Source: Elusimicrobiota bacterium
Lineage (GTDB): Bacteria > Elusimicrobiota > Elusimicrobia > UBA1565 > UBA9628
Reading direction: 5' to 3'
Length of the DNA stretch: 64,000 bases
NCBI GenBank assembly: GCA_016207605.1
Contig: JACQPJ010000016.1
Span: 2,452-66,451, forward strand
This document shows, in pieces, positions 4,254-62,777 of this stretch (its first letter is position 1; every line of letters begins with the position of its first letter). A model generated the notes under the pieces. The model did no database searches. It was not told where the DNA came from and saw only the letters and a list, made by a program, of their open reading frames with translations. A program made the position numbers and the translations under genes.

Positions 4254-4757
4254 TCAGCGCGAGGCCGTCAGGCGCTCGATGACGTCTTTGGCTTGGGGGA
4301 ATTGTCCGAGCAACTCCTGGCGGTCTCCTAGTTCGAAGTCGGCGAAATCGAAGCCAGGAGCGACGGTGCAGCCGACGAAGGAGTAGGCGCTCCCGGCGCC
4401 GGGATAGGCGCCGAACCAACAGCCGGCGGGGACGACGTGCTGCAATTTCTGGCCGGCCTTGAAATCGGGGCCCATCATCACGGTTTTGATGCGTCCCGAG
4501 GGGAATAACTGGATGAGAGTCAGCGGACCGCCTTGGTAGAAATGCCAGACCTCATCCGACTTGATGCGATGCAGGCGGGGCTTGGAGCCTTGCGGAAGGA
4601 GAAAATAGATCGCCGTGGAGTAGCTTCGAGTTCCCTGGAAGTCCTTGGGCAAGGACTCGGCGGAGATAGTTCCCTTGGAGCGGTAGGACTCCTTGAAGTA
4701 GCCCCCCTCGGGATGGGATTGAAGGCCGTAGGCCTTCACTAATTCGGGGACGGTCAT
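4254..4757 (-). CDS. Cupin-fold protein, DUF985-like.
   Basis: 167-aa ORF with a cupin-like beta-rich sequence; ATG at 4755-4757. Confidence 0.55.
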   Translation of the reverse strand: MTVPELVKAYGLQSHPEGGYFKESYRSKGTISAESLPKDFQGTRSYSTAIYFLLPQGSKPRLHRIKSDEVWHFYQGGPLTLIQLFPSGRIKTVMMGPDFKAGQKLQHVVPAGCWFGAYPGAGSAYSFVGCTVAPGFDFADFELGDRQELLGQFPQAKDVIERLTASR

Positions 4758-4764
4758 GGATATT

Positions 4765-5949
4765 TTATACCAGGGCGGTCAGGAATTTATCCGCGCTGAT
4801 GACGCGCACGTCGTCCTTTATATAATCCTCTCCGGGCGCGCGGACCACTTGGTAGGACAGCGGCAGGCCCAGCTTTGCCTTGAAGTGGAGCAGGGGTCTG
4901 GAGAGGTCGCGCGCAGAGAGCTTCGCCTCGACGCAGAACCAGGGCTTGTCGTCCACCGCGACCAAGAAATCGACCTCGCGGCCCTCGACGTCCCGGAGGA
5001 AGCGAAGCTCCGCGCGGATTCCCTCGGCGTCATGGAGGTAGTGGCAGAACTTCAGCAGGTGCGACGCGATGAGATTTTCGAACCGCGGCCCCGTCTCCGC
5101 CACCTCGGACCAGTCCCAGAGATACAGCTTGGGCTCCTTGCGCAGGGCCTTGATTCGCGTGCTTTGCTGAGGGCGGATGCGGAAGTGGTAGTAGAACCGC
5201 TCCAGCACATCGACCCAGGCGGCGGCGGTCTCGTGCGCGACGGCGAGGTCTTCTCGAAGAGAGTTGACGGAAAGCAGGCCGCCGATCTTTTCCGGAAGCA
5301 GATGGACCAGCGTCTCGACGCCGGAGAGGTCTCTGAGATTTTCGATGTCGCGGATGTCTTCCCGCACGAGCGCGTCCAAACGCTGGTTGTGCCAGCGTCG
5401 GAGGGCCTTTTCCGTTCCCTTCAAGAAAATCTCGGGGAAGCCTCCGAATTTCATCAGGCGGTCGAGAGCGTCGCGGGTTTGGCTCGTCGAGTCGTCAAAA
5501 TCCAGGGCGCGGCCGACGAGCGGGCTTGGCGGCGCGTTTTTAGCCGCAATTTCGCGCAAGGATAGCGGGTGAAGGCGGTAGTGATGGTATCGGCCCAGCA
5601 GGGAATCGCCGCCCTTGCGGTAGACATCCAGCCTGGAACTGCCGGTGACGACAATCTTGTGCCGCGCCCGGTGCTTGTCGAAGAAGCCCTTGATGAAGGT
5701 TTTCCACCGCCGGTATTTGTGGAGCTCGTCGAAGATCAGGAGCGTCTCGTCCGCTGCGAAAGTTCCCGTGAGAATCCGTTTCGCGTCTTCCCGGTCATCC
5801 CAATTGAGATATCGAAAGCGGTTCTTGAAGCTGTCTTGGCCGATCGTTCTTGCCAGCGTCGTTTTGCCGACCTGACGGGGTCCCCCGATGAAGGTCATTT
5901 TCTCCGCCAAATCGCTAAGAATAGACTTTTCTATGTAACGAGTGAGCAT
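4765..5949 (-). CDS. AAA+ ATPase with a C-terminal DUF4143-like region.
   Basis: Walker A GGPRQVGKTT, Walker B LLIFDELH; size and architecture typical of the AAA_14/DUF4143 family. Confidence 0.7.
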   Translation of the reverse strand: MLTRYIEKSILSDLAEKMTFIGGPRQVGKTTLARTIGQDSFKNRFRYLNWDDREDAKRILTGTFAADETLLIFDELHKYRRWKTFIKGFFDKHRARHKIVVTGSSRLDVYRKGGDSLLGRYHHYRLHPLSLREIAAKNAPPSPLVGRALDFDDSTSQTRDALDRLMKFGGFPEIFLKGTEKALRRWHNQRLDALVREDIRDIENLRDLSGVETLVHLLPEKIGGLLSVNSLREDLAVAHETAAAWVDVLERFYYHFRIRPQQSTRIKALRKEPKLYLWDWSEVAETGPRFENLIASHLLKFCHYLHDAEGIRAELRFLRDVEGREVDFLVAVDDKPWFCVEAKLSARDLSRPLLHFKAKLGLPLSYQVVRAPGEDYIKDDVRVISADKFLTALV

Positions 5950-10992: not shown

Positions 10993-13900
10993 ATGGACGG
11001 CGCTTTGACGGTTTTTCGCGGGCCGTTCGAGGCGCTCGAGGAGGCCTTCGCCGCGCGCGCCGCGGAGCTGCGTCCCGGGCCGGGCGAGGCGCCCCTGCTC
11101 GTGGTCGCGCCCTCGCGCGTCCTGGCCGACCGCCTGGAGCGCCTGCTCGCCGTCGAGAAGGGCCTGCCCCTGCTGGGCGCGCACTTCCACACCTTTCGCT
11201 CCCTGGCCGCCTGGCTTTTAGAAGAGGGGGGGCCGTTCGACGGCACGGTCGTCTCCGATCCGCTTTTTCACGACGCGGTCGTCGAGCAGGTCTTGGACGC
11301 GGCGCCGGGCCTGGACCCCGCGGGCGGCGACCGGCCCCGCGGGTTCGCGTCCGCCGTGCGCGCAAGCCTGCGCGACTTGGCCGACGCGGGCGTGGAGCCC
11401 GCCGCGCTCGAGGAGCACTTCGGCGGCGAGCTGCTGCGCGACCCCGCGGAGCGCGCCCGGCTCAAGACCATGCTCGCCCTGCTCTCGGCCTACGAGGCGC
11501 GCCTGGCGGCGTTGGGCGTTCGGACGCCCTCGGCGCTCGTGCGGCGCGCGGCGGAGCTGGCGGCGGGCTCGGAGAGGCTCTCGGCTTTCCGCGAGATATT
11601 TTATTACGGCTTCTACGATCTCACCGGCCTTCAGCTGGAGTTTTTCGAGGCCGTGACGGCGGGCCGCGCGTCCCGCCTCTATTTTCCTTATCGCAAGGAT
11701 CATCCCGCCTTCCGCTTCGCCGACGATTTCTTCGCGCAGAAGCTCGCGGCCCATAGCGTCGCCGATCTTGACCGCCCCGGCGGCGCCGCAACGGCGCTGG
11801 GCGCCGCGCTCGACGCGCTCTTCGACCCGGCCGCGCCGCCGGCGTCGCCGGCGCCGGGCCGCGTCGCGCTCGTCTCCGCCTCGGGGGCTCGCGGCGAGGC
11901 CTGGGCCGCGGCCAAGGAGGCCGTGCGGCTGGCCGAGGAGGGCATCCCCTATGCCGAGATCGCGGTCGTGGCTCGCGTGCTGGAGCCCTACCGCGCGCCG
12001 CTCGCCGAGGCCTTCGCGGCCGAGGGCGTCCCTCTCGATCTCGGCGGCGAGCCGGTCCTGCGCCGGCCGCTGGCCCGGGCCGCGCTCGACCTGCTGACCT
12101 TGCGCCGCGCGGATTTTCCGGCCGCGACCATCGCGGACCTGGCCGCCTCGCCGTATTTCGCCGGCGCGGCGTCCGGCCGCGCCGCGCTGTGGCGCCGGCT
12201 GATCTCGGGCGTGGGAATCCGCGCGGGCTGGCTGCAGTGGCGCGGCAAGCTCGAGCCGCGCCTGGGCGGCCCGGTCGAGCTTCTGCCCCATCGCGTGCGC
12301 GAGGGCCTGCCCGGTTTCGCGGTCCCGGCCGAGGACGCGGCGGCGCTTTGGACGTTCGTTTCGGACTTGCGCGAGCTCCTGGTAGGCCCGCCCGCCGCCT
12401 GGTCGGCGCGCGCGGCCCAAGCGCGTGCGATCGTCGAGGCGAACCTGCGCCTGCCGTTCGACGCGGACGCCGCCGAGCGCGGCGCCTGGGACGCGGTCCT
12501 AGGCGCCCTGGACGAACTCTCGCTCTTCGACCGGCTCGGCGCGCCCTGCGCGTGGCCGGACTTCCTCGACGCCTTCGAGCTCAAGCTCTCCCGCGCCGTC
12601 TTGAAGGGCGGCGCGCCGGCCTTGGGCGTGCGCGCCCTCGACGCGATGGACGCCCGCGGCCAGCGCTTCCGCGCCGTGGTCCTCCTCGGCCTCAAGGAAA
12701 AGCTCTTTCCCCGCGTCGTCCAGGAGGACCCGCTCCTGCGCGACGTCGCGCGCGCGGCCCTGCGCCACCCGGCCGGCTACTGGATCGGGCGCAAGGCCTC
12801 CGGCCACGAGGAGGAGCGCCTGCTCTTCTACCTCGCCGCGGCGTCGGCGCGCGAGCGGCTGACGCTGATCTACCCGCGCTCCGACGAGGAGGGCCGCGCC
12901 GAGGTCCCCTCGACCTACCTGCGCGAGCTTTGCCGCGCCGCCGGCCTGCCGCCGCCCGGCGAGGCCGGCGGCCTGCGCGTGCCCCGCCCGCCCGCGGGAC
13001 GCCTGCGCTCGGTCGCGCCGGAGCTGCGCACGCCGCGGGAGGCGGTCCTGCTGGCCGCGCTCGACGGCGGCGCGCCCGATCCCGCGCTGGAGGCGGCCGG
13101 CGTGCCCGCGGCGCGCCTGGCGGAGGGCTTCCGTCTCGCGGCCGCGCTCAACGCGCGCGGAGCCCCGGGGCCCTACGACGGGATGGTCCGCCCGCCCGCG
13201 GCCGAGCTGGCCGCCTGGCGCGCCTCCGGCCTCTCGCCGACCGCCCTCGACCAGTACGAGCGCTGCCCCTTCCAGTTCTTCGCCGAGCGCGTCCTGGGCC
13301 TGGGCAAGCGCGAGGAGGGCTCCGAGCGCGGCGAACTGGCCTCGCGCGAGCGCGGCCGGGTCTATCACGCCGCGCTCGAGAGGTTTTACGCGTCTTTGAA
13401 CGAAGCGGTTTGGGACGGCCGCGAGCCGTGGCCGCCGCGGCTGGAGGCGGCGCTTGCGGCTGTCTTCGCGGAGAACGACTGGCGCGCCCTCGGCCTCTAT
13501 CCCCTGCTCTGGGAGGCGGCGCGCGACGCCATGTCGGACCATCTGCGCGCCTTCGTGGTCTGGGACTTTGAGCGCCTAAAGGGCGGGAGCCTGAGGCCGC
13601 GGCTCTTCGAGAAGGAGCTGCGGGGACGGCTGGAGGAAGCCCCGCTCGGCGTGCCTTGGAAGGGCGTGGCCGACCGTCTCGACCTCGACGAGGCGGGGAA
13701 GCGCTTCCGCGTGTCCGACTACAAGACGCGTGCCTCGGTCCGCTGGGGCAAGGACCTGATCCAGGCCGGCGTCGAGGGCCGCGTCCACCAGCTTCCCATG
13801 TACGTCCTGCTCGCCGGAGAGGAATTGGGCGCCGACTGGAGTTTTGCGGAGGGGGAGCTCCTGTTCCTGGAGGCGGACGACGACGCCAAGCGCCGCCTCG

Positions 13901-18081: not shown

Positions 18082-18093
18082 TATGATTGAATC

Positions 18094-18336
18094 ATGCAAA
18101 CGAAATTGACCTTGCGGCTCGAGAAAAACCTCATCTCTCAGGCGAAGTCCTATGCCAAGAAGCGGGGGAAATCCATCTCGCGGATCGTGGCCGACTATTT
18201 CAAGGCGTTGGGAGGGCCGTCAGCCAAATCGCGCGCGGCACTGACGCCGATCGTTTGTTCCTTGAAGGGCAGCCTTCGCGGGGCCAACGTCGTCGCCGAC
18301 GATATGCACCGTCGCTGGGAAGAAAAGCATCTTTGA
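18094..18336 (+). CDS. vapB: Type II antitoxin (ribbon-helix-helix / VapB-like).
   Basis: 80-aa basic protein; stop overlaps the start of the PIN toxin (TTGA). Confidence 0.55.
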   Translation: MQTKLTLRLEKNLISQAKSYAKKRGKSISRIVADYFKALGGPSAKSRAALTPIVCSLKGSLRGANVVADDMHRRWEEKHL

Positions 18337-18755
18337 AGGTCCTCGTCGACACCAACGTCGTGCTGGATCTTCTGCTGGACCGGGAGCCATTTTCCGACTC
18401 CGCCGCCAGGTTGTTTTCCCTGATCGAGGAAGGGCGCGTGACGGGATATCTATGCGCCACGACTCTGACGACGATCCACTATTTGGCGGGGAAAGTCCTG
18501 GGACGCTCCAAAGCTCGCGACGAAGTGCGCAAATGTTTGTCTTTTCTGGAAGTCGCCGCCGTGACCCGGCCGGTCCTGGAAAACGCTCTCAACTCCAATC
18601 TGCAGGATTTTGAGGATGCGGTTCTTTGCGAGGCCGCGCGCGAGATCGGCGCCGAGGCGATCGTGACCAGGAATAAGGTTGATTTCAAAAAAGCCCCTTT
18701 GCCGACGCATACGCCGCAGGAATTTCTTTTGCTGCTGGACCCGCATTTCTCGTGA
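18333..18755 (+). CDS. vapC: PIN-domain toxin (VapC-like), TTG start.
   Basis: PIN acidic residues (VLVDTNVVLD ... DFEDA ... TRN); 4-nt overlap with the antitoxin. Confidence 0.7.
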   Translation: MKVLVDTNVVLDLLLDREPFSDSAARLFSLIEEGRVTGYLCATTLTTIHYLAGKVLGRSKARDEVRKCLSFLEVAAVTRPVLENALNSNLQDFEDAVLCEAAREIGAEAIVTRNKVDFKKAPLPTHTPQEFLLLLDPHFS

Positions 18756-25244: not shown

Positions 25245-25300
25245 GAGCGTGTCCTGCGGACGCGGCACAGATGCGCTGAGGAAATCCCCATAGCGTCTAG
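25241..25300 (+). repeat. Copy C of the CTAG-bounded repeat; its terminal CTAGs supply the stop codons of glcDE (+) and the XRE regulator (-).
   Basis: TAG at 25242-25244 and CTA at 25297-25299 both lie within the element termini. Confidence 0.7.
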
Positions 25301-25641
25301 TCGTCCCGGACGAGGGACTTGAGCACGCGCAGGACCTTCGAGCGCTGCCGGGGCGACATCTCCTTGACCATCGCGCCCATCTTGCCGGCCCAGCCGTAAT
25401 CAGGGAGTTGGCGCGTCGGGATGTCCGCAAAAATACTGGCGACCGGGACTCCCAGCGCGTCGGCCAATCTCTTGACCATATTGATGCTGGGCGCGGTTTT
25501 CCCGTTCTCGATCCGGCTCAAATGCGCGGTGTCCACGGCCGCCGCCTCCGCCAACTCCTGCTGGGTAAAATGGCGCGCTTCCCTCTCCGTCTTGACGCGC
25601 CGTCCGATCAAGGCGTAGAGCTCGGTCGTGGAGAAGCTCAT
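25297..25641 (-). CDS. XRE-family HTH transcriptional regulator.
   Basis: HTH_3 region (FTQQELAEAAAVDTAHLSRIENGK). Confidence 0.7.
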   Translation of the reverse strand: MSFSTTELYALIGRRVKTEREARHFTQQELAEAAAVDTAHLSRIENGKTAPSINMVKRLADALGVPVASIFADIPTRQLPDYGWAGKMGAMVKEMSPRQRSKVLRVLKSLVRDD

Positions 25642-53345: not shown

Positions 53346-54340
53346 GGGAGTCCCCCCAGGATGCGCCGGACCGTCCCCGGCCCGCCGTAGACCAGGCCGG
53401 TGTAGAGCTGGACCAGGTCCGCTCCGGCGGCCAGGCGCTCGCGGGCGTCCTCGGCGTTTTCAATCCCTCCAACGCCGATGATGGGCAGTTTCGTCTTAGC
53501 GCGCGCCTTGCGCGCGAGCTCCGTCGCCCGGGCCTTGAGCGGCGCGCCCGAAAGACCGCCGGCCTCGACCGACCACTTCGCGTCCACATCCTCGCGCCCG
53601 ATCGTCGTGTTGGCGACCACCAGTCCCTGCGCGAGCCTTTCCGCCGTCTCGATCGCGGCGGCGAAATCCTCGTCGGCGAGATCGGGCGCCAACTTGACCA
53701 AGACGGGCTTTTTCATCCCGTTGGCTTCTTGGACGGCCTCCAGGATCGCGGCCAGGTTCTTGACGCTCTGCAGGGCGCGCAGTCCCGGGGTGTTCGGAGA
53801 CGACACATTGACCACGAAGTAGTCGCCGTGCGCCGCGAGAATCCGGAAAGTTCCCGCGTAGGCCTGCGGCGCCTCCTCCGGCGCCGTGCCCTTGTTGAGG
53901 CCCAGGTTGATGCCCAGGGGAATCGGCGGCCGGGGACGGGAGGCCAGGCGCCGCGCGACCGCGGCTGCGCCCTCGCTGTTGAAGCCGAGGCGATTGATGA
54001 GCGCGCGCGACTCGGGGACGCGGAAGAGCCGCGGGCGCGGATTGCCGGGCTGGGGCTCCAGTGTTACCGAGCCGATCTCCAAAAAACCGAAGCCGAGCGC
54101 GGGCAGGATCGGGACCAGGCGCCCGTCCTTGTCGAAGCCGGCGGCCAGCCCGACGGGGTTGGGAAAGCGCAGCCCGAAGACGACGCGCTCCAGGCTCGGC
54201 CGCGATGGGCCGGCCATTCTCGCCGCGACCGCCGCGGCGCCGGGGAGCTCGGCGAGCAAGGCCATCAGGCCCGAGACCTCCTCGTGCGCGCGTTCCGCGT
54301 CGAGGCGGAACAGCCACGGCCGCGCCAGCTCATAGAGCAT
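53342..54340 (-). CDS. pyrD: Dihydroorotate dehydrogenase, class 2 (quinone).
   Basis: Class-2 N-terminal extension and the conserved GFLEIGSVT... motifs. Confidence 0.85.
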   Translation of the reverse strand: MLYELARPWLFRLDAERAHEEVSGLMALLAELPGAAAVAARMAGPSRPSLERVVFGLRFPNPVGLAAGFDKDGRLVPILPALGFGFLEIGSVTLEPQPGNPRPRLFRVPESRALINRLGFNSEGAAAVARRLASRPRPPIPLGINLGLNKGTAPEEAPQAYAGTFRILAAHGDYFVVNVSSPNTPGLRALQSVKNLAAILEAVQEANGMKKPVLVKLAPDLADEDFAAAIETAERLAQGLVVANTTIGREDVDAKWSVEAGGLSGAPLKARATELARKARAKTKLPIIGVGGIENAEDARERLAAGADLVQLYTGLVYGGPGTVRRILGGLP

Positions 54341-55622
54341 GGACCACGCGTCCGGCGACGAGGGTCTTGACCGCGCGGCCCTTGAGCGGGCGTCCCGCGA
54401 AGGGCGTGTTGCGGCTCTTGGAGCGGAAGGGCGGCGCGGGCGTCCAGGAGGCGCCCGGGTCTACCAGGACCAGATCGGCGTCCGCGCCCGGCGCCAGCGT
54501 GCCCTTGCCCTTGAGCCCGAGCAAGGCGGCCGGCGCCGAGGACATGCGCTCGACGAGCGCGCGCCGCGAGAGGACCTTGCCGCGGACCAATTCGGTCAGC
54601 GCGACGGCCAGGGAGGTCTCCAGGCCGATCACGCCGAAGGGCGCCAGGTCCAGGCCCTGCGCCTTGGCCCCGCAGCCGTGGGGCGCGTGATCGGTGGCGA
54701 TCGCGTCGATCGTCCCGTCGGCCAAGCCCTCGCGCAGGGCCGCGCGGTCTTCTCCGCCGCGCAGGGGCGGGTTCATTTTCCAATTCGCGTCCAAGTCAGG
54801 GATCATCCCGTCGGTCAGCGCGAAGTGGTGGGGGCAGGCCTCGGCGCTGACCGGCACGCCGCGGCGCTTGGCCCGGCGCACGGCCTCCACCGAGGCCGCC
54901 GCGGAGAGGTGCGCGAGGTGGACGCGGCCTCCCGTGAGCTCGGCCAGCGCGACGTCGCGCAGGACCTGCACGGTCTCCGCGGCGCCGGGAGCTCCTTTAA
55001 GGCCCTTGCGCAGAGCCGGCGCGCCCTCGTGGACGCAGGCGCCGGCCGAGAGGGTGAGGTCCTCGCAGTGGTCTATGACGAGCAGGCCCAGGTCCTTGGC
55101 GTACTCCAGCGCGCGGCGCATCAGCCCCGCGCTCATCACCGGCCGCCCGTCGTCGGAGAGCGCGGCGGCGCCGGCGGCCTTGAGCCGCGCGAACTCGGTC
55201 AGGCGCTCGCCCCTCTGTCCGGCGGTGACGGCGGCCGCGAAGAGGACGTTCACCTGGGCGTCCCGCGCGGCCTTGGCGCGCAGAAAGGCGAGCTGGGAGG
55301 GGGAGTCCGTGACCGGCTCGGTGTTGGCCATGGCGAGCACGGTGGTGACACCCCCGGCCGCGGCCGCGGCCGTCCCGGTCGCGATCGTCTCGTCGCCCTC
55401 GCGCCCTGGCTCGCGCAGGTGGACGTGCATGTCCACCAGGCCGGGGATCACCCACAACCCCTTCGCGTCGAGCGTCGGCGTTCCCTTCAAGCCGGCTTTT
55501 TTGGCCAAGCCCGCGGCCGCGTCCTTGATTTTTCCGTTCTCGATCAGGACGTCGCGCACCGCCTCCAGCTTGCGGCGCGGGTCGATCACGAGCCCGCCGG
55601 CGACGAGCAGGCGCTCAGCCAC
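54330..55622 (-). CDS. pyrC: Dihydroorotase (GTG start).
   Basis: Amidohydrolase HxH (DMHVHLREPG) and downstream metal ligands. Confidence 0.8.
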   Translation of the reverse strand: MAERLLVAGGLVIDPRRKLEAVRDVLIENGKIKDAAAGLAKKAGLKGTPTLDAKGLWVIPGLVDMHVHLREPGREGDETIATGTAAAAAGGVTTVLAMANTEPVTDSPSQLAFLRAKAARDAQVNVLFAAAVTAGQRGERLTEFARLKAAGAAALSDDGRPVMSAGLMRRALEYAKDLGLLVIDHCEDLTLSAGACVHEGAPALRKGLKGAPGAAETVQVLRDVALAELTGGRVHLAHLSAAASVEAVRRAKRRGVPVSAEACPHHFALTDGMIPDLDANWKMNPPLRGGEDRAALREGLADGTIDAIATDHAPHGCGAKAQGLDLAPFGVIGLETSLAVALTELVRGKVLSRRALVERMSSAPAALLGLKGKGTLAPGADADLVLVDPGASWTPAPPFRSKSRNTPFAGRPLKGRAVKTLVAGRVVHAL

Positions 55623-56535
55623 GGGCTCGTTCCTGCTCGCAGAGCGCGAGCACGGCCATGCGGATCAAGACGCCGTTGGCGACTTGGTCGAGGATCACGG
55701 AGCGCGGCCCGTCGGCGACCTCGGAGGAGATCTCCACGCCGCGGTTGATGGGCCCCGGATGCAGCACCAGGCCGTCGGGCTTGAGCAGGGCGAGCCTCTC
55801 GGGCGTGAGCTGGTAGGCGGCGGCGTAGTCGGCCAGGGAGGGCACGAAGCCCTGCTCCATGCGCTCGAGCTGGAGGCGCAGGACGTTGACCGCGTTGGCG
55901 CCGCGCAGGGCCTTCTCGACGTCGTGCTCGATACGCGCGCCCAGGGCCGCGAATTCCCGCGGGACCAGCGGCGTGGGCCCGCAGAACACGACAGAGGCCC
56001 CCAGCGTCTTGAGCGCGAAGAGGTTGGAGCGCGCCACGCGGCTGTGGCGTATGTCGCCCAGGATCACCACGCGTTTGCCTTTCAGCGAGCCCCAGCGCTC
56101 GCGCAGGGTCATGACATCGAGAAGCGCTTGGGTGGGATGCTCGTGCCAGCCGTCGCCGGCGTTGACTACGCAGGCCTTCAGCCGCGGCGCCAAATCCTCC
56201 AGCACGCCCGAGCGGTCGTAGCGGAGGATGAAGTGCGTCACCCCGATGGCCTGCAGGTTGAGCGCCGTGTCGAGCAAGGTCTCGCCCTTCGCGAGCGACG
56301 AGCCCGCCGCCGAGAAGCTCAAAACCTCCGCGCCCAGTCGCCGCGCGGCCATCTCGAAGGACGAACGGGTGCGCGTGGACGGCTCGGAGAAGAGGAAGGC
56401 CGCGGTGCGCCCGGCAAGGAGCGGCTTGGGGGGAGAGTCCTTGAAAGCCGCCGCCGCATCGAGAAGGCTCTCGATCTCGTCTGCCTCCAGCCCTTCCAGG
56501 CCGAGCAGGTCCTTGCGGCCCCAGTCTTTCGTCAC
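55615..56535 (-). CDS. pyrB: Aspartate carbamoyltransferase catalytic subunit (GTG start).
   Basis: STRTR and HPTQ motifs of the ATCase/OTCase family. Confidence 0.85.
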   Translation of the reverse strand: MTKDWGRKDLLGLEGLEADEIESLLDAAAAFKDSPPKPLLAGRTAAFLFSEPSTRTRSSFEMAARRLGAEVLSFSAAGSSLAKGETLLDTALNLQAIGVTHFILRYDRSGVLEDLAPRLKACVVNAGDGWHEHPTQALLDVMTLRERWGSLKGKRVVILGDIRHSRVARSNLFALKTLGASVVFCGPTPLVPREFAALGARIEHDVEKALRGANAVNVLRLQLERMEQGFVPSLADYAAAYQLTPERLALLKPDGLVLHPGPINRGVEISSEVADGPRSVILDQVANGVLIRMAVLALCEQERARG

Positions 56536-56616
56536 TCGCGGTTCGGTTCGGCGGAAGGAACCCCGCCTTACGGATTAAACTATTTTTGCCGCCCGCCCGT
56601 CAAAACGAACCGGCCG

Positions 56617-57018
56617 TCACCATTCCTCCACCCGCAAGCCGGGGACGCGCTTGAATTCGCGCACGTTGCGCGTGATGAGCGCGTGCCCCAGCGCCACGCA
56701 AGAGGCCGCCAGCCATAGGTCGTGGGCCCCGATGGGCGAGCCTTTGGCCTCCAACTCCGCCCAGAGCTGGGCGTGCGTCCTCGCCACGGCCAGCTCGATC
56801 GGCAAAACGGGGAAACGCTCCAAGATTCCTTCCACGAAGGCGGCCCGTTGCGCGCGCATCTTGGCGTCCTTGGCCCGCCAAACGCCGTGCAGAAGCTCGC
56901 TGGCGGTGACGACGGAGATGAAGAACTCATCATCCTTTCGCCCCTCGACCTTGGCGGCGACATTCAGAAGGCCGCGTTCCGCGGCGATCAGGGCGTTCGA
57001 GTCGATCAGGACCCCCAA
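56617..57018 (-). CDS. vapC: PIN-domain toxin (VapC).
   Basis: MGVLIDSNALIAAERG PIN N-terminus and acidic residues; 13-nt overlap with the antitoxin gene. Confidence 0.7.
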   Translation of the reverse strand: MGVLIDSNALIAAERGLLNVAAKVEGRKDDEFFISVVTASELLHGVWRAKDAKMRAQRAAFVEGILERFPVLPIELAVARTHAQLWAELEAKGSPIGAHDLWLAASCVALGHALITRNVREFKRVPGLRVEEW

Positions 57019-57278
57019 GGATCCCTCGCGGGGCGGCGATTCAAGGATTTTTTCGCCGCCGTCACGTCGCGCTCGAAATCACGCGCATCCCCCGGCTCCA
57101 TGCGCGGCAGCGTCTTGAGGAGCGCGGGCAACTCCCCCAGCCGCCGCCCCCGCGGCGCGGGATGGAGTTCCGCGAGGACTTTCTTCCCCCGAACGAGCAG
57201 GAAGCTTTCCCCCGCGTAGGAGACGCGGTTCAGATAATCCGAAAAATGCCTGGCCATTTCCGTCACCGTCACGTTCAT
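57006..57278 (-). CDS. Phd/YefM-family antitoxin.
   Basis: MNVTVTEMARHFSDYLNRV YefM-like N-terminus. Confidence 0.6.
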   Translation of the reverse strand: MNVTVTEMARHFSDYLNRVSYAGESFLLVRGKKVLAELHPAPRGRRLGELPALLKTLPRMEPGDARDFERDVTAAKKSLNRRPARDPWGS

Positions 57279-57566
57279 AATGCCTCCTGCCCAAACGTTT
57301 AACTGTTTATCAGTTTATCAGATAATATGATAAAAATCAATGACACAAGTAAGGAGTAAGGAATCCTGCTTGATAAATTTGTCGCGTTAGAATACCATCG
57401 GGTGAAGCCAAAAGTTGGAGCCGCACTCCATAGCCGGGGTGGTTGCAAGCGTCAAGATAGCAGGGAGAGATTCGTGTTTGAACTATTGGGCGGCATTCGG
57501 AAAGCGCACTGGAATCGCCAATGCTCTGCTGCCGTACAACGCGGGCAGGAAAATTATCTTGAATAC

Positions 57567-58133
57567 ATGAACAAATGGGCCCGAGAGAAGAATGCCGTGC
57601 CTCCTCGATCAGGCCCGGTAACGATGGATCAGTTTGTCGCCCTTGCTTCCATTTATTCTGCAAGTATCGGCTGGTTTGAGGCATTCAAAACTCCAGAGTT
57701 CGATGGGGTCTTTATTCATGTTCCTCCTGATGCCGCGTTTCGAAAGAGAGCGCTAGAATTCAGCATGTACCATCACTTTTTGCATTCGCTCATCTGGACC
57801 TCATTTGGTATCTCAGAGAAAGCGCTTTCACAGGTTGCCGAGAACTTTGGAATCGCGATGATGCTCGCAGGCTTCATCAAGGAGAAGTCTGAGTTCGATG
57901 GATTCCAAAAGCTGTTTGCCAACCGCATGTCCCAATATGGGGAGTGCCTGAAGAACCAGAAGGCGGCGGTCACACCGGCTTTATTGATGGCTGAAATTCT
58001 TGCCGGCCAACTGTTTGATGACGGAGACTCCCTTAGAAAATCCAGATTCAAAATAGCCCTGTCTTCAAACCTTGCCGCCTCGGTGGCCGACCTAAAAACA
58101 ATGTATTCGCGTTTCCAACTGAAAGCAGCATAG
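57567..58133 (+). CDS. Orphan hypothetical protein, low GC; the ORF may instead start at 57402.
   Basis: GC around 48% against about 70% background; no recognisable motif. Confidence 0.3.
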   Translation: MNKWAREKNAVPPRSGPVTMDQFVALASIYSASIGWFEAFKTPEFDGVFIHVPPDAAFRKRALEFSMYHHFLHSLIWTSFGISEKALSQVAENFGIAMMLAGFIKEKSEFDGFQKLFANRMSQYGECLKNQKAAVTPALLMAEILAGQLFDDGDSLRKSRFKIALSSNLAASVADLKTMYSRFQLKAA

Positions 58134-58196
58134 CCCCGGGCAAGAAAATCTACGGGGGAAGGGTTTGGCGTGATCTCGCGTGCTGGATGTCGAGAC

Positions 58197-60122
58197 CTAC
58201 GTATGAGCGGACGCCAGGGCGCGGGCCAACGCTGAGACGAAAGACGTCGCGTTGGGCCAGCGCGCCGAAGGCTCCGGCTCCAGCGCGCGGCCGATCACGG
58301 CGTCCACCTGGGGGTTGAGCCCCGGCACCTGCTCCGAGAGGGGCCGGTACAGCTTCTGCGCCTTCATCATCATTCCGCCGCCGCTGACCGGGAAGGGTGG
58401 GCGGCCGCAGAGCATTTCGTAGACGCAGCAGCCCAGCGCATAGATGTCGGTCGCGGGGCGCGCCAACTGGCCCGCCTCCTGCTCCGGCGCCATATAGGCG
58501 GGCGTGCCGGAAATCTCGAGCTTGGACATGGTCGAGAGCGTCTCCGCCACGCGACGAGCGATGCCGAAGTCCATTACCTTGGAGTTGTTGTTTTTATCCA
58601 GCATGATGTTGGCCGGCTTCAAGTCCTGGTGCACGATCCCTTTCAAATGCGCGTAATCCAAGGCCAGCGCCACCTGACGTGAAATCGCCACCGTTTCCTC
58701 CGGCGTCAGGGGGCTCCGGCCCAGCCTCTCGTGCAGGGTCTCCCCATCGACGCGCTCGAACACCAGGAACAGTCCCCCGTCCTCGTGGACCGAGTGGATC
58801 TCCACGATGTTGGGATGATGAAGCGAGGCCACCATGCGCGCCTCCTTCAGGAACCGCTGGCGCTCCCGTGGGTTGTTGGCCACCTCGTCCCTCAGCTTCT
58901 TGATGGCCACCGTCCGCTCCAGGGCCAGGTCCCTGGCCTCGTAGACCACGCCCATGCCGCCCGTCCCCAGCGTGCGCACGAGCTGGAAGCCGCCGGGCAT
59001 GGCGTCGGGCCGCGGCGCGGGCTGCAGCTCGTCGAGACGCACCATCCGCCGCGAGATGGACGTAAACCCCGTTTTTTTAAGCGCCGCGAACGAGAAGAAC
59101 AGCAGGGCCGTGCCCACCGCCGCCAGCCACACGAGGCTCGGCCGCGGCTTGGACTTGGGCCGCAGGGGCGAGGACTCGGCGAGCTGCTTTTGGTGATAAA
59201 GCTCCGCAAACCTGGGGTTGAATTCGGCCGCTTTCTTAAGGGCAGCCAGGGCCTCGCCGCGGCGCTTCTCGGGCACGTTCTCCCGGCTGTAGAGCCACAG
59301 GTACTTGCTGCCCTTGAGGGTCTCGTCGCCTGACTCCAGCAGCTCGCGGTGTTCCTGCCTGCGCACCGTGTCTACCGCCTTGCCGAGGTGGCCCATGACG
59401 TGGAAGCGGTCGAAGACGATCTTCTCGACGGCGTCCGGCACGCGCGCCAGTGTCGCCTGGATGGAGGGCTCCCACATATCCATCGCCACCGCCTCGATTC
59501 CCGCCAACTGCTCCTTGCTCAGCCCGGCGTAGTAGCCGTCGAGACTCTCCTGCTTGCGGTCCTCGCTGATGTGCTCGACCGTGCCCTCCTCCAAATCGCA
59601 GACCAGCGTCAGGTACCGGTGCCCTTTGGCTGCCGCCTTCTCATCAACGCCGATGTGGCGCACCACTTTGCGCGCCTTGCGGTCTCGCCCGCGCCGGACC
59701 GCCCGCTGCATCAAGCCCCACGCCTCGTCCCAGCTGATCCGCAGGATTCTCGTCGCCCCGCTTACGTCGCACCGGCTGAGCACGCCGATGGCCAGCCGCT
59801 CGAACAGCAGCGTGAACCGTGACCGTGGCTCCGCCCACGGTACCTTGACCTGCACGACGCCGTGCTCGTCGCACTCCACGCGTGGGATGCGTGCGTGCAG
59901 GTAGGTCTGGAACTGGCAGCTATCCAAGTGCCGCCACGTGCGCTCCTCGGCGTGGTCGTAGAGCGCCAGCTTCGCGGCGCACTGCGGGCATGTCCACCCG
60001 GCGTCTTGCGGCTGCTCGGCCCACACGTCCACGCGCTGTGTCTTCACGTCCAGGTTCACGCGAGCCACCGCCCACGGCGACTGCAATCCGAGCAGGTACT
60101 GGTAGAGCGCGGTGTCTTGCAT
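58197..60122 (-). pseudogene. In-frame chimera: a 3'-truncated ISL3-family transposase (about aa 1-318) fused to a TM helix plus a complete Ser/Thr protein kinase catalytic domain (about aa 325-641).
   Basis: ISL3 transposase motifs (MQDTALYQYLLGL...WRHLD...HIGVDEKA...FDRFHV...) followed by a TM segment and Hanks kinase motifs (GxGxxG, VAIK, HQDLKPAN, DFG, APE). Confidence 0.6.
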
Positions 60123-60200
60123 GGCGGCCTCCTTGCGAGGCCACCATTTTATCCTACCCGACGGTCACCCACGCCAAACCCGGAAGCGCTAGTTTCTTTT
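59170..60200 (-). mobile_element. ISL3-family insertion sequence remnant (transposase 5' portion plus upstream end region); ends not defined.
   Basis: Transposase homology; the flanking AT-rich sequence at 60180-60310 marks a compositional boundary. Confidence 0.45.
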
Positions 60201-60319
60201 TAGACAGTTCTTCTCAAATCTACTAGACGGGATAGAAATGAAAAGTTTTCTGCATATAAAATACTCTCTTATGAAAATTAACACTTTACATTAAAGAAAC
60301 AATATGTCAGCATCCAGCC

Positions 60320-60466
60320 ATGGCGGCGCAGTTCTCCGTCCTGGTCGTTGAAGACGACGCCCTCGCCCAGAAGATCATGACGGCGCATCTGGCGCCGCAC
60401 CAGGCGGATTTCGCCGATGACGCCGCGGCCGCGCGCCGCAAGCTCGCCTCGGGCCGCTACGACTGA
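60320..60466 (+). pseudogene. Response-regulator receiver domain N-terminal fragment (48 aa).
   Basis: The translation has the VLVVEDD acidic-pocket start of a receiver domain and then stops. Confidence 0.3.
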
Positions 60467-60780
60467 TGGGCCCTAATAACCCGAGTGGGTCAAGAGCTTT
60501 TCAAGGAACACTTCCTGCGCGCCGGGGACGGCTCCGACCAGTAGTGGGCGCATCTCTGCGGGATTTTAACCGCCGCTCGCGGCCTTCATGCCCAGCGCGG
60601 AGGCGGTGGCGCGGGACATCCTTCACGGCGCCGCCGCCGCCCAGCCGGCGCTCTCCGATGACGGGCCTCCACCTGGAAATGCAGCGCGTCCATAGCATCA
60701 GGCTCTCCCGCCGGTCCATCGCCCAATACAGGAAGGACATGACGCGAGACAAGAACACCATGACGATCGGAGATGCAAAG

Positions 60781-61566
60781 ATGAAGACAATCCATGCCGG
60801 GAACGCGGCCAGGAGCCTCGCGGAGCAAGCAGGCTACAGCGGCACCGTCGAGTACATATACACCGCGGACCATCCGGAGGTCCTGCGCTGGACCAGCCAC
60901 TTTGAGGGGCTGGCGGCGCGGGAGGGGGTGTTCGAGGCTTTCGAGGCGGCCTGCCCCAGGTCTTGGCGCCGCGCCACGGTCGTCAGCGCGCTCTGGCACC
61001 GATTTTCCTCATTCATGCCATGGTTCCTCTGCCAGGCTGCAGCGATGGTCTCCACGAACGAGAAGCGCCACTACGTGATCCAGACGGCCTTCGAGGAGCT
61101 TGGCATGCGCGACGCGCGCGAGATCCACTGCGACATGTTTTGGAACGCCGCCGCACAGGCAGGCGTAAGTGAGAAGGATCGGGCCGAGGTCCTGGCGGAC
61201 GTCCCGGCCGCTACGGCCCTGGCCTCCCTTCGGGGGGCGCTTCTTTCCTACGGCACGGACGAGGAGGTGCTCGGCATCCTGCTCGGCCTCGAGATCCCGG
61301 CGCGGGAGAACATCGAGACGGTGTTCCGGTCGCTGGCCCACGACGACGGGACGGCGGTTGCGCTCGACGCTCACCGCTTCTTCATCTTCCACCGCCAGAT
61401 CGAGATCGAGCACGTGCGGCTGACGGTGGCTAACTTCGTGAGGTACTGCCGGACCGAGGAACAGAGGCGCCGCTTCCAGCGGGGCTTCTCCAATGGGCTC
61501 GGGTTCTGGAGCCGCTTCTGGAACACCGCCTCCGACCTGGTGGGAGTCCCCGCCCGCGCCTCATGA
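60781..61566 (+). CDS. Putative heme-oxygenase-like (CADD/PqqC/TenA-fold) iron-dependent redox enzyme; alternative starts at 60739 and 60760.
   Basis: Helical roughly 260-aa protein with Glu/His-containing motifs (AFEELGMRDAREIH, HRFFIFHRQIEIEH) suggestive of di-iron ligand sets; GGAGA RBS before 60781. Confidence 0.4.
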   Translation: MKTIHAGNAARSLAEQAGYSGTVEYIYTADHPEVLRWTSHFEGLAAREGVFEAFEAACPRSWRRATVVSALWHRFSSFMPWFLCQAAAMVSTNEKRHYVIQTAFEELGMRDAREIHCDMFWNAAAQAGVSEKDRAEVLADVPAATALASLRGALLSYGTDEEVLGILLGLEIPARENIETVFRSLAHDDGTAVALDAHRFFIFHRQIEIEHVRLTVANFVRYCRTEEQRRRFQRGFSNGLGFWSRFWNTASDLVGVPARAS

Positions 61567-62777
61567 ACGACGCCGCCGAGTTCCGCAAGCTCATCGCGGC
61601 CTCCTTCGTCTCGCAGACGGGGAGCCATTTCCTGACCCTGGCTCTCGCTGCCTTCGTGTTGCTGAGTACCGGATCAGCCGTTCAATCAGCGCTGGTCTTC
61701 GTGCTCTCCTACCTCCCGTCCATCCTGGCGGCGCCCAGGCTGGGCCACTGGGTGGATTGCCACGTCTCCAAGCGCCTGATCGCGACCAACGAGCTGATCT
61801 CAATTGCATCCACGGTGCTGTGCGGTCTGTGCATCGAGTTCCGGCTCCCTATGGCTGCCCTGTGCGCCGTGCTCGCTCTCCGTTCCATCCTGCTTTTTGT
61901 TGGCCGCGCCGCCGGAACCAAATGGCTCAAGCTGATCACGTCCCCGGCCCTGCAGACGGGGCGGATCAAGCTCTTCTATCTGGCTTTCTTCCTGTCTACC
62001 GCCGTCTCCGGCCTGCTGGCGGCCCTCGTGCTCAAGCATGCCTCCATCCGCATGGTCGTGGGCATCGACGTGGCGAGCTATCTGCTCGGGATCGCGCTGT
62101 ACATGACGCTCGCCGCGCCGCCCACCGAGCCGGCCGGCCAGGCTCCAGCGCCCGAAGGCGAGGCCCTGCAATCGCTGCGCGAGACCCTGGACGCGATCTT
62201 CGCGATACCCGTGGTTCGGACTTCCTTCCTGGCGGTCTGCCTGTCGCAGGCGGTCTTCCAAGGGGCGTACTCAGCTTTTGTCTCCTACCTGCCGATCTCG
62301 GTCTTCAAGGTGGGCGTGGGCGGGGTGGGCTCCTTCCAGCTCGCGGCCTCGATCGGCATCATTGGAGGCTTTCTCATCAACTGGCTGGCGGCCGGCATCC
62401 TCGCGGAGATTGACCCACAGGTCCCGAGAAAGGCTCTCTGGATCTCCGGCCTGGCGGCGGCGTTCCTCATCTGCGCCGTGTCCATCCCCGCGGTGAGGGT
62501 GAGCCTCGGCTCGTTCCTTCTCTTGAACCTGGCGTACGAATGCGTGTGGCTTCACCATAACTCCGAGTTCTTCCGCGCAAGCCCCAAGCGCCACGCGGCA
62601 CGCTACCAGTTCATACTTTCGTCGTGTGCCGCCTTCCTGATGTCGGCCATGACTCTGGCCTACTCCGCCGCGGTGCAATGGCTGGGTCCCTCCTCTGGGA
62701 CCCTTTCGGTCCTCATGGGTGGAGTGCTGGTCACAGCGTACGCGGGGATGGCGCCATCCTGGAGGCAGGGCTCATGA
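61563..62777 (+). CDS. MFS transporter (12 TM).
   Basis: Hydrophobic profile with 12 predicted helices; ATGA overlaps at both ends. Confidence 0.7.
   Translation: MNDAAEFRKLIAASFVSQTGSHFLTLALAAFVLLSTGSAVQSALVFVLSYLPSILAAPRLGHWVDCHVSKRLIATNELISIASTVLCGLCIEFRLPMAALCAVLALRSILLFVGRAAGTKWLKLITSPALQTGRIKLFYLAFFLSTAVSGLLAALVLKHASIRMVVGIDVASYLLGIALYMTLAAPPTEPAGQAPAPEGEALQSLRETLDAIFAIPVVRTSFLAVCLSQAVFQGAYSAFVSYLPISVFKVGVGGVGSFQLAASIGIIGGFLINWLAAGILAEIDPQVPRKALWISGLAAAFLICAVSIPAVRVSLGSFLLLNLAYECVWLHHNSEFFRASPKRHAARYQFILSSCAAFLMSAMTLAYSAAVQWLGPSSGTLSVLMGGVLVTAYAGMAPSWRQGS

Follow-up and report, generated by a model that had tools for sequence, protein, structure and literature searches.

A probable mosaic of accessory and broken DNA at a synteny break-point upstream of the pyrB promoter in an Elusimicrobiota bacterium

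Toxin-antitoxin (TA) modules, protein kinases and orphan genes cluster in defence islands, and TA operons of type II, to which the VapBC modules belong, are autoregulated. Other described systems that come close to the locus studied here are insertion sequences (IS) of the ISL3 family, the tetratricopeptide repeat-transmembrane-kinases (TPR-TM-kinases) of Elusimicrobia, and integron cassettes, for which the attC site has been defined as RYYYAAC, a palindrome and GTTRRRY within 57-141 bp (PMC3053210), GTTRRRY being the core site and RYYYAAC the inverse core site (PMC3053210, PMC5027507). We analyzed a stretch of 64,000 nucleotides, called the window throughout, from an Elusimicrobiota bacterium (GenBank assembly GCA_016207605.1, contig JACQPJ010000016.1, positions 2,452 to 66,451). 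Upstream of pyrB, the window carries a Phd/VapC-type TA pair, an orphan gene, an open reading frame (ORF) in which an ISL3 transposase is fused to a kinase, and a fragment of a response-regulator receiver domain (Table 1). These gene identifications, made in an initial annotation, proved to be essentially correct. The same annotation had taken the genes as parts of one decayed mobile or defence island of low guanine-plus-cytosine (GC) content. The locus is indeed like a defence island in having a TA module, a kinase and a gene without annotated function side by side in variable DNA, but it differs from one in that no other defence gene was detected and the orphan matches no defence model. In our reading, the region is probably a mosaic of accessory and broken DNA that was built up by several independent events at a synteny break-point upstream of the pyrB promoter.

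The composition of the DNA bears on this reading. GC content was 69.4% for the window overall and 70.1% for positions 1-57278. At 57279, as initially claimed, it dropped sharply, from 0.66 to 0.48 in 300-nt segments; positions 57279-58150 were at 48.1% GC, about 3.6 standard deviations below the mean of the 300-nt segments, and segments below 52% GC made up 1.9% of all such segments. The dip is real and large, although it is not unique, inasmuch as four further low-GC patches occur in the window (4.5-6.25 kb, 17.8-18.75 kb and 25.45-25.95 kb), likewise at accessory-type genes. The low-GC interval of about 3.2 kb (57279-60470) that had been proposed was not found, however. GC content was back at the host level by about 58150, roughly 17 nt past the stop codon of the orphan gene, and the following 2 kb or so (58151-60122) were at 66.6% GC with host-like GC content at third codon positions (GC3). 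A return to host composition at about 60310 was therefore correct only for a second, short dip (60123-60320, about 200 bp, 41.9% GC), which ends at the start codon of the receiver stub. In short, there is no continuous 3.2-kb low-GC island but two separate patches, and atypical composition is confined to 0.87 kb and 0.2 kb. Codon usage gave the same picture. GC3 was 0.896 +/- 0.048 in core genes and 0.91 in pyrB; it was 0.86 in vapC, 0.79 in the Phd-like gene, 0.88 in the receiver stub, 0.89 in the kinase part and 0.80-0.98 along the whole length of the 641-codon chimeric ORF (0.89 overall). Only the orphan, with a GC3 of 0.54, is a compositionally foreign gene in this region. Given that the IS fragment, the kinase fragment, the receiver stub and the TA pair are all host-like in codon usage, a single decayed island is not supported.

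Comparison with related genomes placed the locus at a break in gene order. Relatives were found by a pyrB scan of one genome per species, and three of them were useful, L002, L003 and L004, with pyrB identities to the window of 79%, 77% and 67%, respectively. The order pyrB-pyrC-pyrD-phosphoribosyltransferase-purM-purNH was common to the window and all three; in the window, the minus strand continues past pyrB with pyrC, pyrD, a phosphoribosyltransferase gene, purM and a purN/purH fusion. Also common was a block of about 70 nt upstream of pyrB (L002 3650-3720, L003 5485-5554, L004 4280-4352), in which a TTGAC box and AAAATAGTyTAATC precede a GC-rich hairpin (GGCGGGGTTCCTTCCGCC in the window). 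This block, which had no Rfam family match, probably represents the pyrB promoter plus a leader structure; in the window, conservation of the upstream DNA begins 13 nt past the vapC stop codon. Upstream of the block, the three relatives had nothing in common, either with the window or with each other. The neighbours there were an FtsH-like protease and a small basic protein in L002 and peptidase-like ORFs in L003, and the TA pair, the orphan, the ISL3 element, the kinase and the two genes of the right-hand context that encode a haem-oxygenase-like diiron enzyme (HDO) and a major facilitator superfamily (MFS) transporter were present in none of the three relatives. The site is a synteny break-point, with its left edge at about 56605, at the pyrB promoter. 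Because the relatives share only the operon and its promoter and differ upstream, the DNA upstream of pyrB is accessory and variable. The earlier view of an insertion at the head of the pyr operon thus held in so far as the upstream DNA is variable in all four genomes, but a single insertion with defined boundaries found no support.

The orphan gene was studied further. In agreement with the 188- to 243-aa orphan ORF at about 48% GC noted at the outset, the frame is open from 57402 to its stop at 58133 and has 49-50% GC; the GTG at 57402 gives the 243-aa NCBI form HY552_01975, and the ORF corresponds exactly to NCBI protein MBI4371043.1. The frame runs for 257 codons without a stop in DNA of 48% GC, a length that 0 of 5000 shuffles reached. 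A word-indexed search covering 5.8 billion clusters returned only the orphan itself, and an exhaustive HMMER search of 1.84 billion representatives of about 15 billion proteins returned two relatives, P0002 (215 aa, 43% identity, E = 6e-51) and P0003 (258 aa, 22%, E = 3.5e-4). Each of the three members is a singleton in its own 90% cluster. Pattern scans of JGI metagenomes and IMG/VR and tblastn against all fetched loci yielded no further member, and exact-sequence look-ups of the 243-aa and 188-aa forms matched no contig. The start of P0002 is equivalent to residue 28 of the annotated 243-aa form. On account of this N-terminus, a Shine-Dalgarno sequence and a promoter-like site, the GTG at 57474 is favoured, which gives a protein (219 aa) similar in length to P0002; the annotated form probably has 24 codons too many at its start. 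The 43% identity to P0002 extends over the full length at saturated synonymous sites, and such conservation of the amino acids shows that the orphan is a real protein under selection.

What kind of protein this is was addressed by structure prediction and profile searches. An AlphaFold2 model of the orphan, computed from the three-sequence alignment, was all-alpha with 7 helices (pLDDT 79.8, pTM 0.77). For none of the three members was an accepted match found in Pfam, NCBIfam, PADLOC, PHROGs or the PDB sequences; a PDB profile search with the orphan family returned nothing, and Foldseek of the model against PDB and BFVD returned only noise (E > 0.3, TM-score < 0.3). No catalytic motif was common to the three members. 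A partial Ubiq_cyt_C_chap match of one homologue (E = 0.0049, 17.4 bits against a cut-off of 21.5) was rejected, the other two members being without it. All three members are at 49-50% GC beside flanks of 67-70% GC, and the two homologues occur without a TA pair or kinase beside them. The orphan gene was probably acquired horizontally, and its product, predicted to be soluble and all-alpha, belongs to an extremely rare family.

The context of both homologues pointed to integrons. They lie on short Logan contigs (samples SRR22388344 and SRR22387825), L082 (with P0002) and L083, which end inside attC-type structures. In L082, GTTAGAC is located 24 nt before the ATG and GCGACGTCTAAC 21 nt past the stop codon; together, they form a 12-nt perfect inverted repeat that matches the core site GTTRRRY and the inverse core site RYYYAAC (GTTAGAC/GTCTAAC). 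In L083, CCCTAACCATTCG and then a GC-rich palindrome come after the stop codon. The 5' half of an GCCTAACCATTCG-type attC is present 21-26 nt past the stop in both homologues. When JGI metagenome contigs were scanned for the pattern common to the two tails, GRSSYCTAACCATTSGNNNGNGC, 107 stretches were obtained. GTTAG was found 40-170 nt downstream in 32 of the 67 stretches with enough flank, compared with 3/67 in a mirror-image upstream control, and the exact reverse complement of the inverse core followed in 20. The retrieved intervals fold as canonical attC hairpins of 66-141 nt (GCCTAACCATTCG..GAGC...GCTCAnCT..CGTTAGGC). An attC covariance model (R1), built from eight of the shortest retrieved sites, recovered attC sites of other size classes and also motif-less sites spaced 0.5-1.3 kb apart in L097, L103 and L120 (E 1e-17 to 1e-5), i.e., cassette arrays. 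With this model, the incomplete tail of L083 scored 25.6 bits (E = 2.3e-5) and the 32-nt tail of L082 scored 14.4 bits (E = 0.066). P0002 and P0003 are integron-type gene cassettes; the evidence is firm for L083 and, counting the flanking core sites, good for L082.

The attC sequences themselves deserve a remark. GCCTAACCATTCG marks the 5' half of a widespread environmental attC family (L091-L170; e.g., L097 466-3463 on the minus strand, L103 1253-14081 on the minus strand, and L120), with size classes of 66-72, 99-108 and 124-127 nt and with arrays in soil and sediment metagenome contigs. In L082 (406-667), the P0002 cassette has as its neighbour, on the opposite strand, a PNP_UDP-family gene of host-like composition (70% GC), and no attC or integrase was detectable upstream of it; P0002 may be a solitary cassette at a secondary site, in parallel to the window.

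The orphan of the window, by definition, is not a cassette but only a relative of cassette genes. It resembles integron cassettes in being a single short low-GC ORF in a high-GC genome and in having two relatives with the attC 5' half past the stop, one of them also preceded by GTTAGAC; it differs from them in that it has no attC, no nearby integrase and a candidate promoter of its own. With filters off, the covariance model found no attC better than E = 1.5 at 56.5-61.6 kb; an R''/R' motif-pair scan of the window and DNA folding of 57290-57400 revealed none, no attC array was found anywhere in the 64 kb, and there was no tyrosine recombinase among all ORFs of 56.6-64 kb. The best model hit in the window, at 12579-12627 on the plus strand (17 bits, E = 0.021), was judged spurious, being a GC-rich hairpin with poor R boxes inside a long ORF. 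Upstream of the orphan start, GTTAGAA could be the left edge of a former cassette; this is a weak lead, and neither the motif-pair scan nor the covariance model found a partner inverse core site for it. The presence of GTTAGAA and the return of GC content so soon after the orphan stop, at the point where the attC sites of the two relatives start, are compatible with a former cassette lacking attC, and prove nothing. Either the orphan was once a cassette and has since lost its attC, or it reached this place by some other route.

The TA pair lies on the other side of the low-GC step. It was initially described as wedged upstream of pyrB within the low-GC interval; the pair is present, with vapC 81 bp upstream of pyrB and in the same orientation, but it is outside the interval and has a near-native 65-66% GC. 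As in VapBC modules of type II, the two genes are small and overlap, with the antitoxin gene first (the overlap is 13 nt, and AGGAGG, a Shine-Dalgarno sequence, precedes the antitoxin ATG by 4 nt), and the predicted PIN-domain toxin has the acidic active-site residues D6, E41 and D100, read from the sequence. The location in accessory DNA is another likeness. The module differs from described ones in that VapC, which matched the NCBIfam VapC model (tRNA-fMet endonuclease type) at 1.2e-23, did not reach equivalog cut-offs, and in that the antitoxin reached Phd/YefM only below threshold. The match of the 90-aa protein to Pfam PhdYeFM_antitox (E = 0.011, 15.9 bits against a cut-off of 29.8) aligned residues 3-66 to positions 4-66 of the 74-position profile; there was no NCBIfam, PADLOC or PDB sequence match, and a single-sequence AlphaFold2 model was too poor to be informative (pLDDT 53). 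We consider the gene a probable Phd/YefM-type antitoxin gene.

Upstream of the Phd-like gene, the AT-rich direct repeats pointed out initially, a tandem GTTTATCA x2 at 57305-57320, were found to belong to a larger cluster. The heptamer TTTATCA occurs there four times within 72 nt (57306-57377), twice direct (57306-57312 and 57314-57320, plus strand) and twice inverted (57328-57334 and 57371-57377, minus strand). These are 4 of the 6 copies in the whole 64 kb, and 0 of 20000 local shuffles reached a count of four. On each strand, the heptamers coincide in part with sigma-70-like hexamers. Autoregulation, as in other type II TA operons, would predict an AT-rich promoter whose repeats are both direct and inverted, and the heptamer region is most likely the phd-vapC operator and promoter. 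The same AT-rich DNA may also serve as the promoter of the divergently oriented orphan gene.

The largest ORF of the region, with 641 codons and no internal stops or frameshifts, is the in-frame fusion of a truncated ISL3 transposase to a kinase that had been recognized before. At 80-87% identity, its residues 1-296 match a 408-aa ISL3 transposase that occurs on thousands of environmental contigs (many of Nitrospira), and the identity ends there. The Pfam domains Zn_ribbon_ISL3, HTH_Tnp_ISL3 and DDE_Tnp_ISL3 were found, the last only for profile positions 1-153 of 240, and NCBIfam transpos_ISL3 matched at 9e-66 (222 bits, cut-off 180) over positions 5-289 of 370. Four independent insertions (L084-L087) defined the ends of this element as a left inverted repeat, GGGGCTTCCGGGT..., and a right inverted repeat, ...ACCCGGAAGCCCC, the element being about 1311 bp long and having AT-rich flanks. 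The window copy has DNA homology to the element at 60187-59272 and, like other members of the family, a left terminal inverted repeat (60189-60160, GCGCTTCCGGGTTTGGCGTGGGTGACCGTC), the leader and an AT-rich flank. Unlike them, it is incomplete, at about 70% of the element, with neither the right inverted repeat nor the final 355 bp or so; the DDE domain is cut, and the transposase frame runs into a host gene. What is left is a dead remnant and no longer a mobile copy. A complete ISL3 copy in L084 (767-1075) sits inside a receiver gene, which is cut after ..LDLQMPGMDGFQVMENLMEI; its resemblance to the window, where the IS lies 130 bp upstream of the receiver stub, is probably a coincidence.

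Over 99% of their length, residues 297-641 share 60-65% identity with TPR-TM-kinases of 569-603 aa from Elusimicrobia (P0124-P0138), which consist of an N-terminal TPR array, one invariant transmembrane segment and a C-terminal Hanks kinase. Homology starts at about residue 253-276 of these proteins. The window shares with them the last TPR-like helix, the conserved transmembrane segment (LVWLAAVGTALLFFSFAAL) and the complete Hanks-type kinase domain with its G-loop, HQD catalytic loop, DFG and APE motifs. It differs from them in lacking the N-terminal 255 residues or so, where the transposase takes the place of the TPR array, and in not lying beside guaB-hemB-hemL, as two of them do; the N-terminal part was found nowhere in the window. 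Around the junction, the sequence RRGEALAALKKAAEF is like both the transposase (RRDE-FAALR) and the kinase family (GxxExxLADLKxAA), and because it resembles both parents, the exact breakpoint cannot be placed. The 641-codon ORF is most likely a pseudogene fusion, from which an intact kinase domain could still be made; an exact-sequence look-up of it matched no contig.

Some features of the kinase family were also recorded. HQD replaces the usual HRD throughout (58600-58640 on the minus strand in the window; P0124-P0138), which makes these non-RD kinases, and the invariant transmembrane segment reads WLxAxGTALxFFSFA. Directly upstream of the closest full-length homologue, L089 (5330-6000) has 671 bp at 45% GC without a called gene, in a contig of 64% GC. 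An explanation of the kinase and receiver fragments by the gene context of the homologues was rejected: none of the neighbours guaB, hemB, hemL and CT398 occurs in the window, and the receiver close to the kinase of L088 bears no relation to the stub.

To the right of the IS, the 48-aa receiver fragment that was reported initially could be recognized, although only by sub-threshold profile matches. The stub aligns to positions 1-44 of the 111-position profile; its TGA comes before the phospho-acceptor position, and no continuation past the TGA was found in any frame. The second low-GC patch consists of the IS leader and left repeat (60123-60189) together with the AT-rich DNA between the IS and the stub, which would be the target of the IS and the former promoter region of the response regulator, not a foreign island. 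A non-coding gap of 272 bp (60467-60738) separates the stub from the HDO gene. The HDO, MFS and ATP-grasp genes, which are co-oriented and overlapping, have a slightly low GC content (65.9%), and are absent from the three relatives, look like a small biosynthesis and export cluster. Elsewhere in the window, other low-GC patches contain genes for a Cupin_5 protein and an AAA_14/DUF4143 ATPase (4254-5949, GC3 0.78), for a PIN_3-domain protein with an 83-aa N-terminal extension (18087-18755), which at a GC3 of 0.61 is the second most atypical gene seen, and for an HTH_3 regulator (25297-25641).

Table 1. Features upstream of pyrB and in its surroundings, in window coordinates.
Feature	Position	Strand	Basis
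pyrC	54330-55622	-	ORF/domain identification
pyrB	55615-56535	-	ORF/domain identification
Conserved block, probable pyrB promoter/leader (TTGACG ... AAAATAGTTTAATC ... GC hairpin)	56536-56603	-	Alignable in window, L002, L003 and L004
VapC-type PIN-domain toxin gene, 133 aa, apparently intact	56617-57018	-	Pfam PIN 7.4e-14, above cut-off
Probable Phd/YefM-type antitoxin gene, 90 aa	57006-57278	-	Position, size, weak profile alignment
AT-rich divergent control region, 43% GC	57279-57473		Heptamers and sigma-70-like hexamers
GTTAGAA, near match to GTTRRRY	57388-57394	+	Read from sequence; one mismatch, 80 nt upstream of orphan start
Orphan gene, best model 219 aa, GTG start preceded by AGGGAG	57474-58133	+	Homologue N-terminus, Shine-Dalgarno
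Spacer between convergent stops of orphan and kinase, 63 bp	58134-58196		GC rises to host level; no attC
ISL3::kinase in-frame ORF, 641 codons	58197-60122	-	No internal stops or frameshifts
3' part of TPR-TM-Ser/Thr kinase gene	58197-59252	-	Pfam Pkinase 2.2e-51; 5' ~255 codons missing
Fusion junction, codons ~285-296	59235-59270	-	Like both transposase and kinase family
Dead ISL3-family element	59253-60189	-	Left terminal inverted repeat, 67-nt leader, transposase codons 1 to ~290 of 408
AT-rich DNA outside IS left end	60190-60319		Promoter-like hexamers, upstream of receiver stub
Response-regulator receiver stub, 48 codons (..VLVVEDD..)	60320-60466	+	NCBIfam PmrA-type E = 0.023; Pfam Response_reg E = 0.11
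HDO gene (PF14518, weak BesC-like match)	60739-61566	+	Domain search
MFS transporter gene	61563-62777	+	Domain search
ATP-grasp enzyme gene	62774 to window end (64000)	+	Domain search

At least three or four separate events best account for the pieces of the region. A Phd-like/VapC module would have been gained beside the pyrB promoter, bringing its own AT-rich promoter with the TTTATCA heptamers, and might since have had a role in stabilising the region. One foreign gene, the orphan, would have been gained from a cassette-borne family, to be transcribed divergently from the TA operon; our best guess is a dispensable cassette-type accessory protein, for which roles in defence, immunity or stress are the usual suspects. 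AT-rich DNA upstream of a response-regulator gene may have been the target of an ISL3 insertion; a deletion that came later, from about codon 290 of the 408 transposase codons to about codon 255 of the roughly 600 codons of a TPR-TM-kinase gene, would then have removed the right IS end and joined the two frames by chance into the 641-codon ORF. A second deletion would have truncated the response-regulator gene behind codon 48, bringing it next to the DNA upstream of the HDO-MFS-ATP-grasp cluster. Composition, domain content, IS ends, truncation points, the lack of synteny, the rarity of the orphan family and the attC context of its relatives are observed; the sequence of events and their mechanisms are inferred. 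Several observations weigh against this history or parts of it. The comparison genomes are distant (pyrB 67-79%) and show variability, not insertion boundaries, the right edge, an empty site or the order of events. The orphan of the window has no attC, and its cassette origin rests on two relatives whose contigs both end inside attC, one of them with a marginal score (E = 0.066). The antitoxin assignment depends on a sub-threshold Pfam match and on gene position. The TA pair, the orphan and the kinase are adjacent, as they also would be in a defence locus; the chimeric ORF is uninterrupted, so that a functional fusion is conceivable; and the contig belongs to a metagenome-assembled genome (MAG), in which the junctions near 59250, 60190 and 60466 may be assembly artefacts.

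The last of these points lead to rival explanations, one of which is the view proposed initially, that a single mobile or defence island, now decayed, sits at the head of the pyr operon and carries the TA pair, the orphan, the kinase and the receiver as one system. The genes are contiguous in DNA that is absent from all relatives, TA modules, kinases and orphan genes do keep such company in defence islands, and the kinase domain scores strongly on the PADLOC profiles of the PD-T4-6 and MADS MAD6 kinases. We nevertheless regard this as unlikely. Only the orphan is compositionally foreign, and the classical marks of a genomic island (integrase, tRNA/att site, flanking repeats, uniform atypical composition) were not found: window scans around the region gave no Rfam match, flanking direct repeat, integrase or attC, and no tRNA is near, the closest being at 28-29 kb. 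The kinase is a 5'-truncated version of a lineage-typical paralogue of about 600 aa, two members of which lie between a CT398-like gene and guaB-hemB-hemL, a housekeeping context. Its matches to PD-T4-6 (273.7 bits), MAD6, MkoA and PglW run through the kinase domain only, and given that a PknB-type NCBIfam model scores about equally (264.9 bits), they appear to reflect generic similarity of the Hanks kinase fold. The orphan and both homologues had 0 matches in PADLOC-DB v2 at E <= 5, Phd, VapC and HDO had 0 at E <= 1, and the homologues of the orphan are accompanied by neither a TA pair nor a kinase. The suggestion of a defence-gene neighbourhood thus gained nothing from the PADLOC searches, and there is no positive evidence for a defence system. 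That the orphan by itself, or with the VapC module, is an anti-phage, abortive-infection or immunity gene of a new type is likewise improbable. It has no similarity to entries of PADLOC, Pfam, NCBIfam, PHROGs, PDB or BFVD and no catalytic motif conserved in the three members, its homologues do not lie beside TA genes, and, to our knowledge, defence genes are a minority among cassette genes of unknown function. Still, the protein is conserved over its full length at saturated synonymous sites, it is horizontally mobile and cassette-borne in relatives, it appears to share a control region with the TA operon, and phage defence systems have been demonstrated among integron cassettes that had no known function (bioRxiv 10.1101/2024.07.02.601719).

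The unusual junctions could also be artefacts of metagenome assembly or binning, which would account for the IS/kinase fusion, the truncation of the receiver and the GC steps. IS elements are classic sites of mis-assembly, and an independent Logan contig, L001, which is 100% identical to the window, covers only 55408-57313, with nothing to the right of it independently confirmed; an identical pyrB-vapC-phd contig is present in sample SRR12113385. (Positions 1-19 of L001 are an untrimmed Nextera adapter, AGATGTGTATAAGAGACAG, at the contig end.) But L001 spans the left GC step at 57279 without a mismatch, NCBI annotates the orphan on the 73-kb contig to which the window belongs, and the IS/kinase junction is inside the transposase gene, in frame and with smooth GC3 across it, not at the IS end where assemblers fail; we therefore consider artefacts distinctly unlikely. 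Very unlikely, too, is a selected, functional fusion, in which the DNA-binding module of a domesticated transposase would be joined to a membrane kinase. In its favour are the uninterrupted ORF, the intact Zn-ribbon, HTH, transmembrane and kinase motifs and the uniform GC3. Yet the architecture occurred in 0 of the best 240 matches of two half-searches, each of which was a transposase or a kinase and never both; two frames joined at random will be in phase one time in three; the DDE domain breaks off at position 153 of its 240-position profile; and the conserved TPR sensor part of the kinase has been replaced. A mosaic of accessory and broken DNA, assembled by independent events, thus is our preferred explanation.

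Variable regions are well known to contain TA modules, IS remnants, gene fragments and orphan genes, and as a whole the region is a textbook pile-up of accessory DNA, IS remnants and pseudogene fragments beside a conserved operon. It represents ordinary genome wear and should not count as a defence island. Two cautions follow from it. For composition-based island calling in MAGs, a foreign gene of 0.9 kb together with an AT-rich promoter patch can mimic a 3-kb island, and generic kinase matches in defence databases can mislead. The orphan family, in contrast to these familiar elements, is undescribed and very rare. In its fullest form, which at present we hold to be unlikely, the proposal would be that these are new cassette-borne all-alpha proteins that moved between high-GC environmental bacteria by integron-type recombination and that confer something selectable, for instance phage defence or immunity to toxins, and that one of them became fixed here outside an integron while sharing a control region with VapBC. 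If true, this would define an undescribed family with three members among about 15 billion proteins and with a predicted fold that has no neighbour in PDB or BFVD. With only three sequences, a confident and unmatched predicted fold and cassette-borne relatives, the orphan is a cheap candidate for a functional screen.

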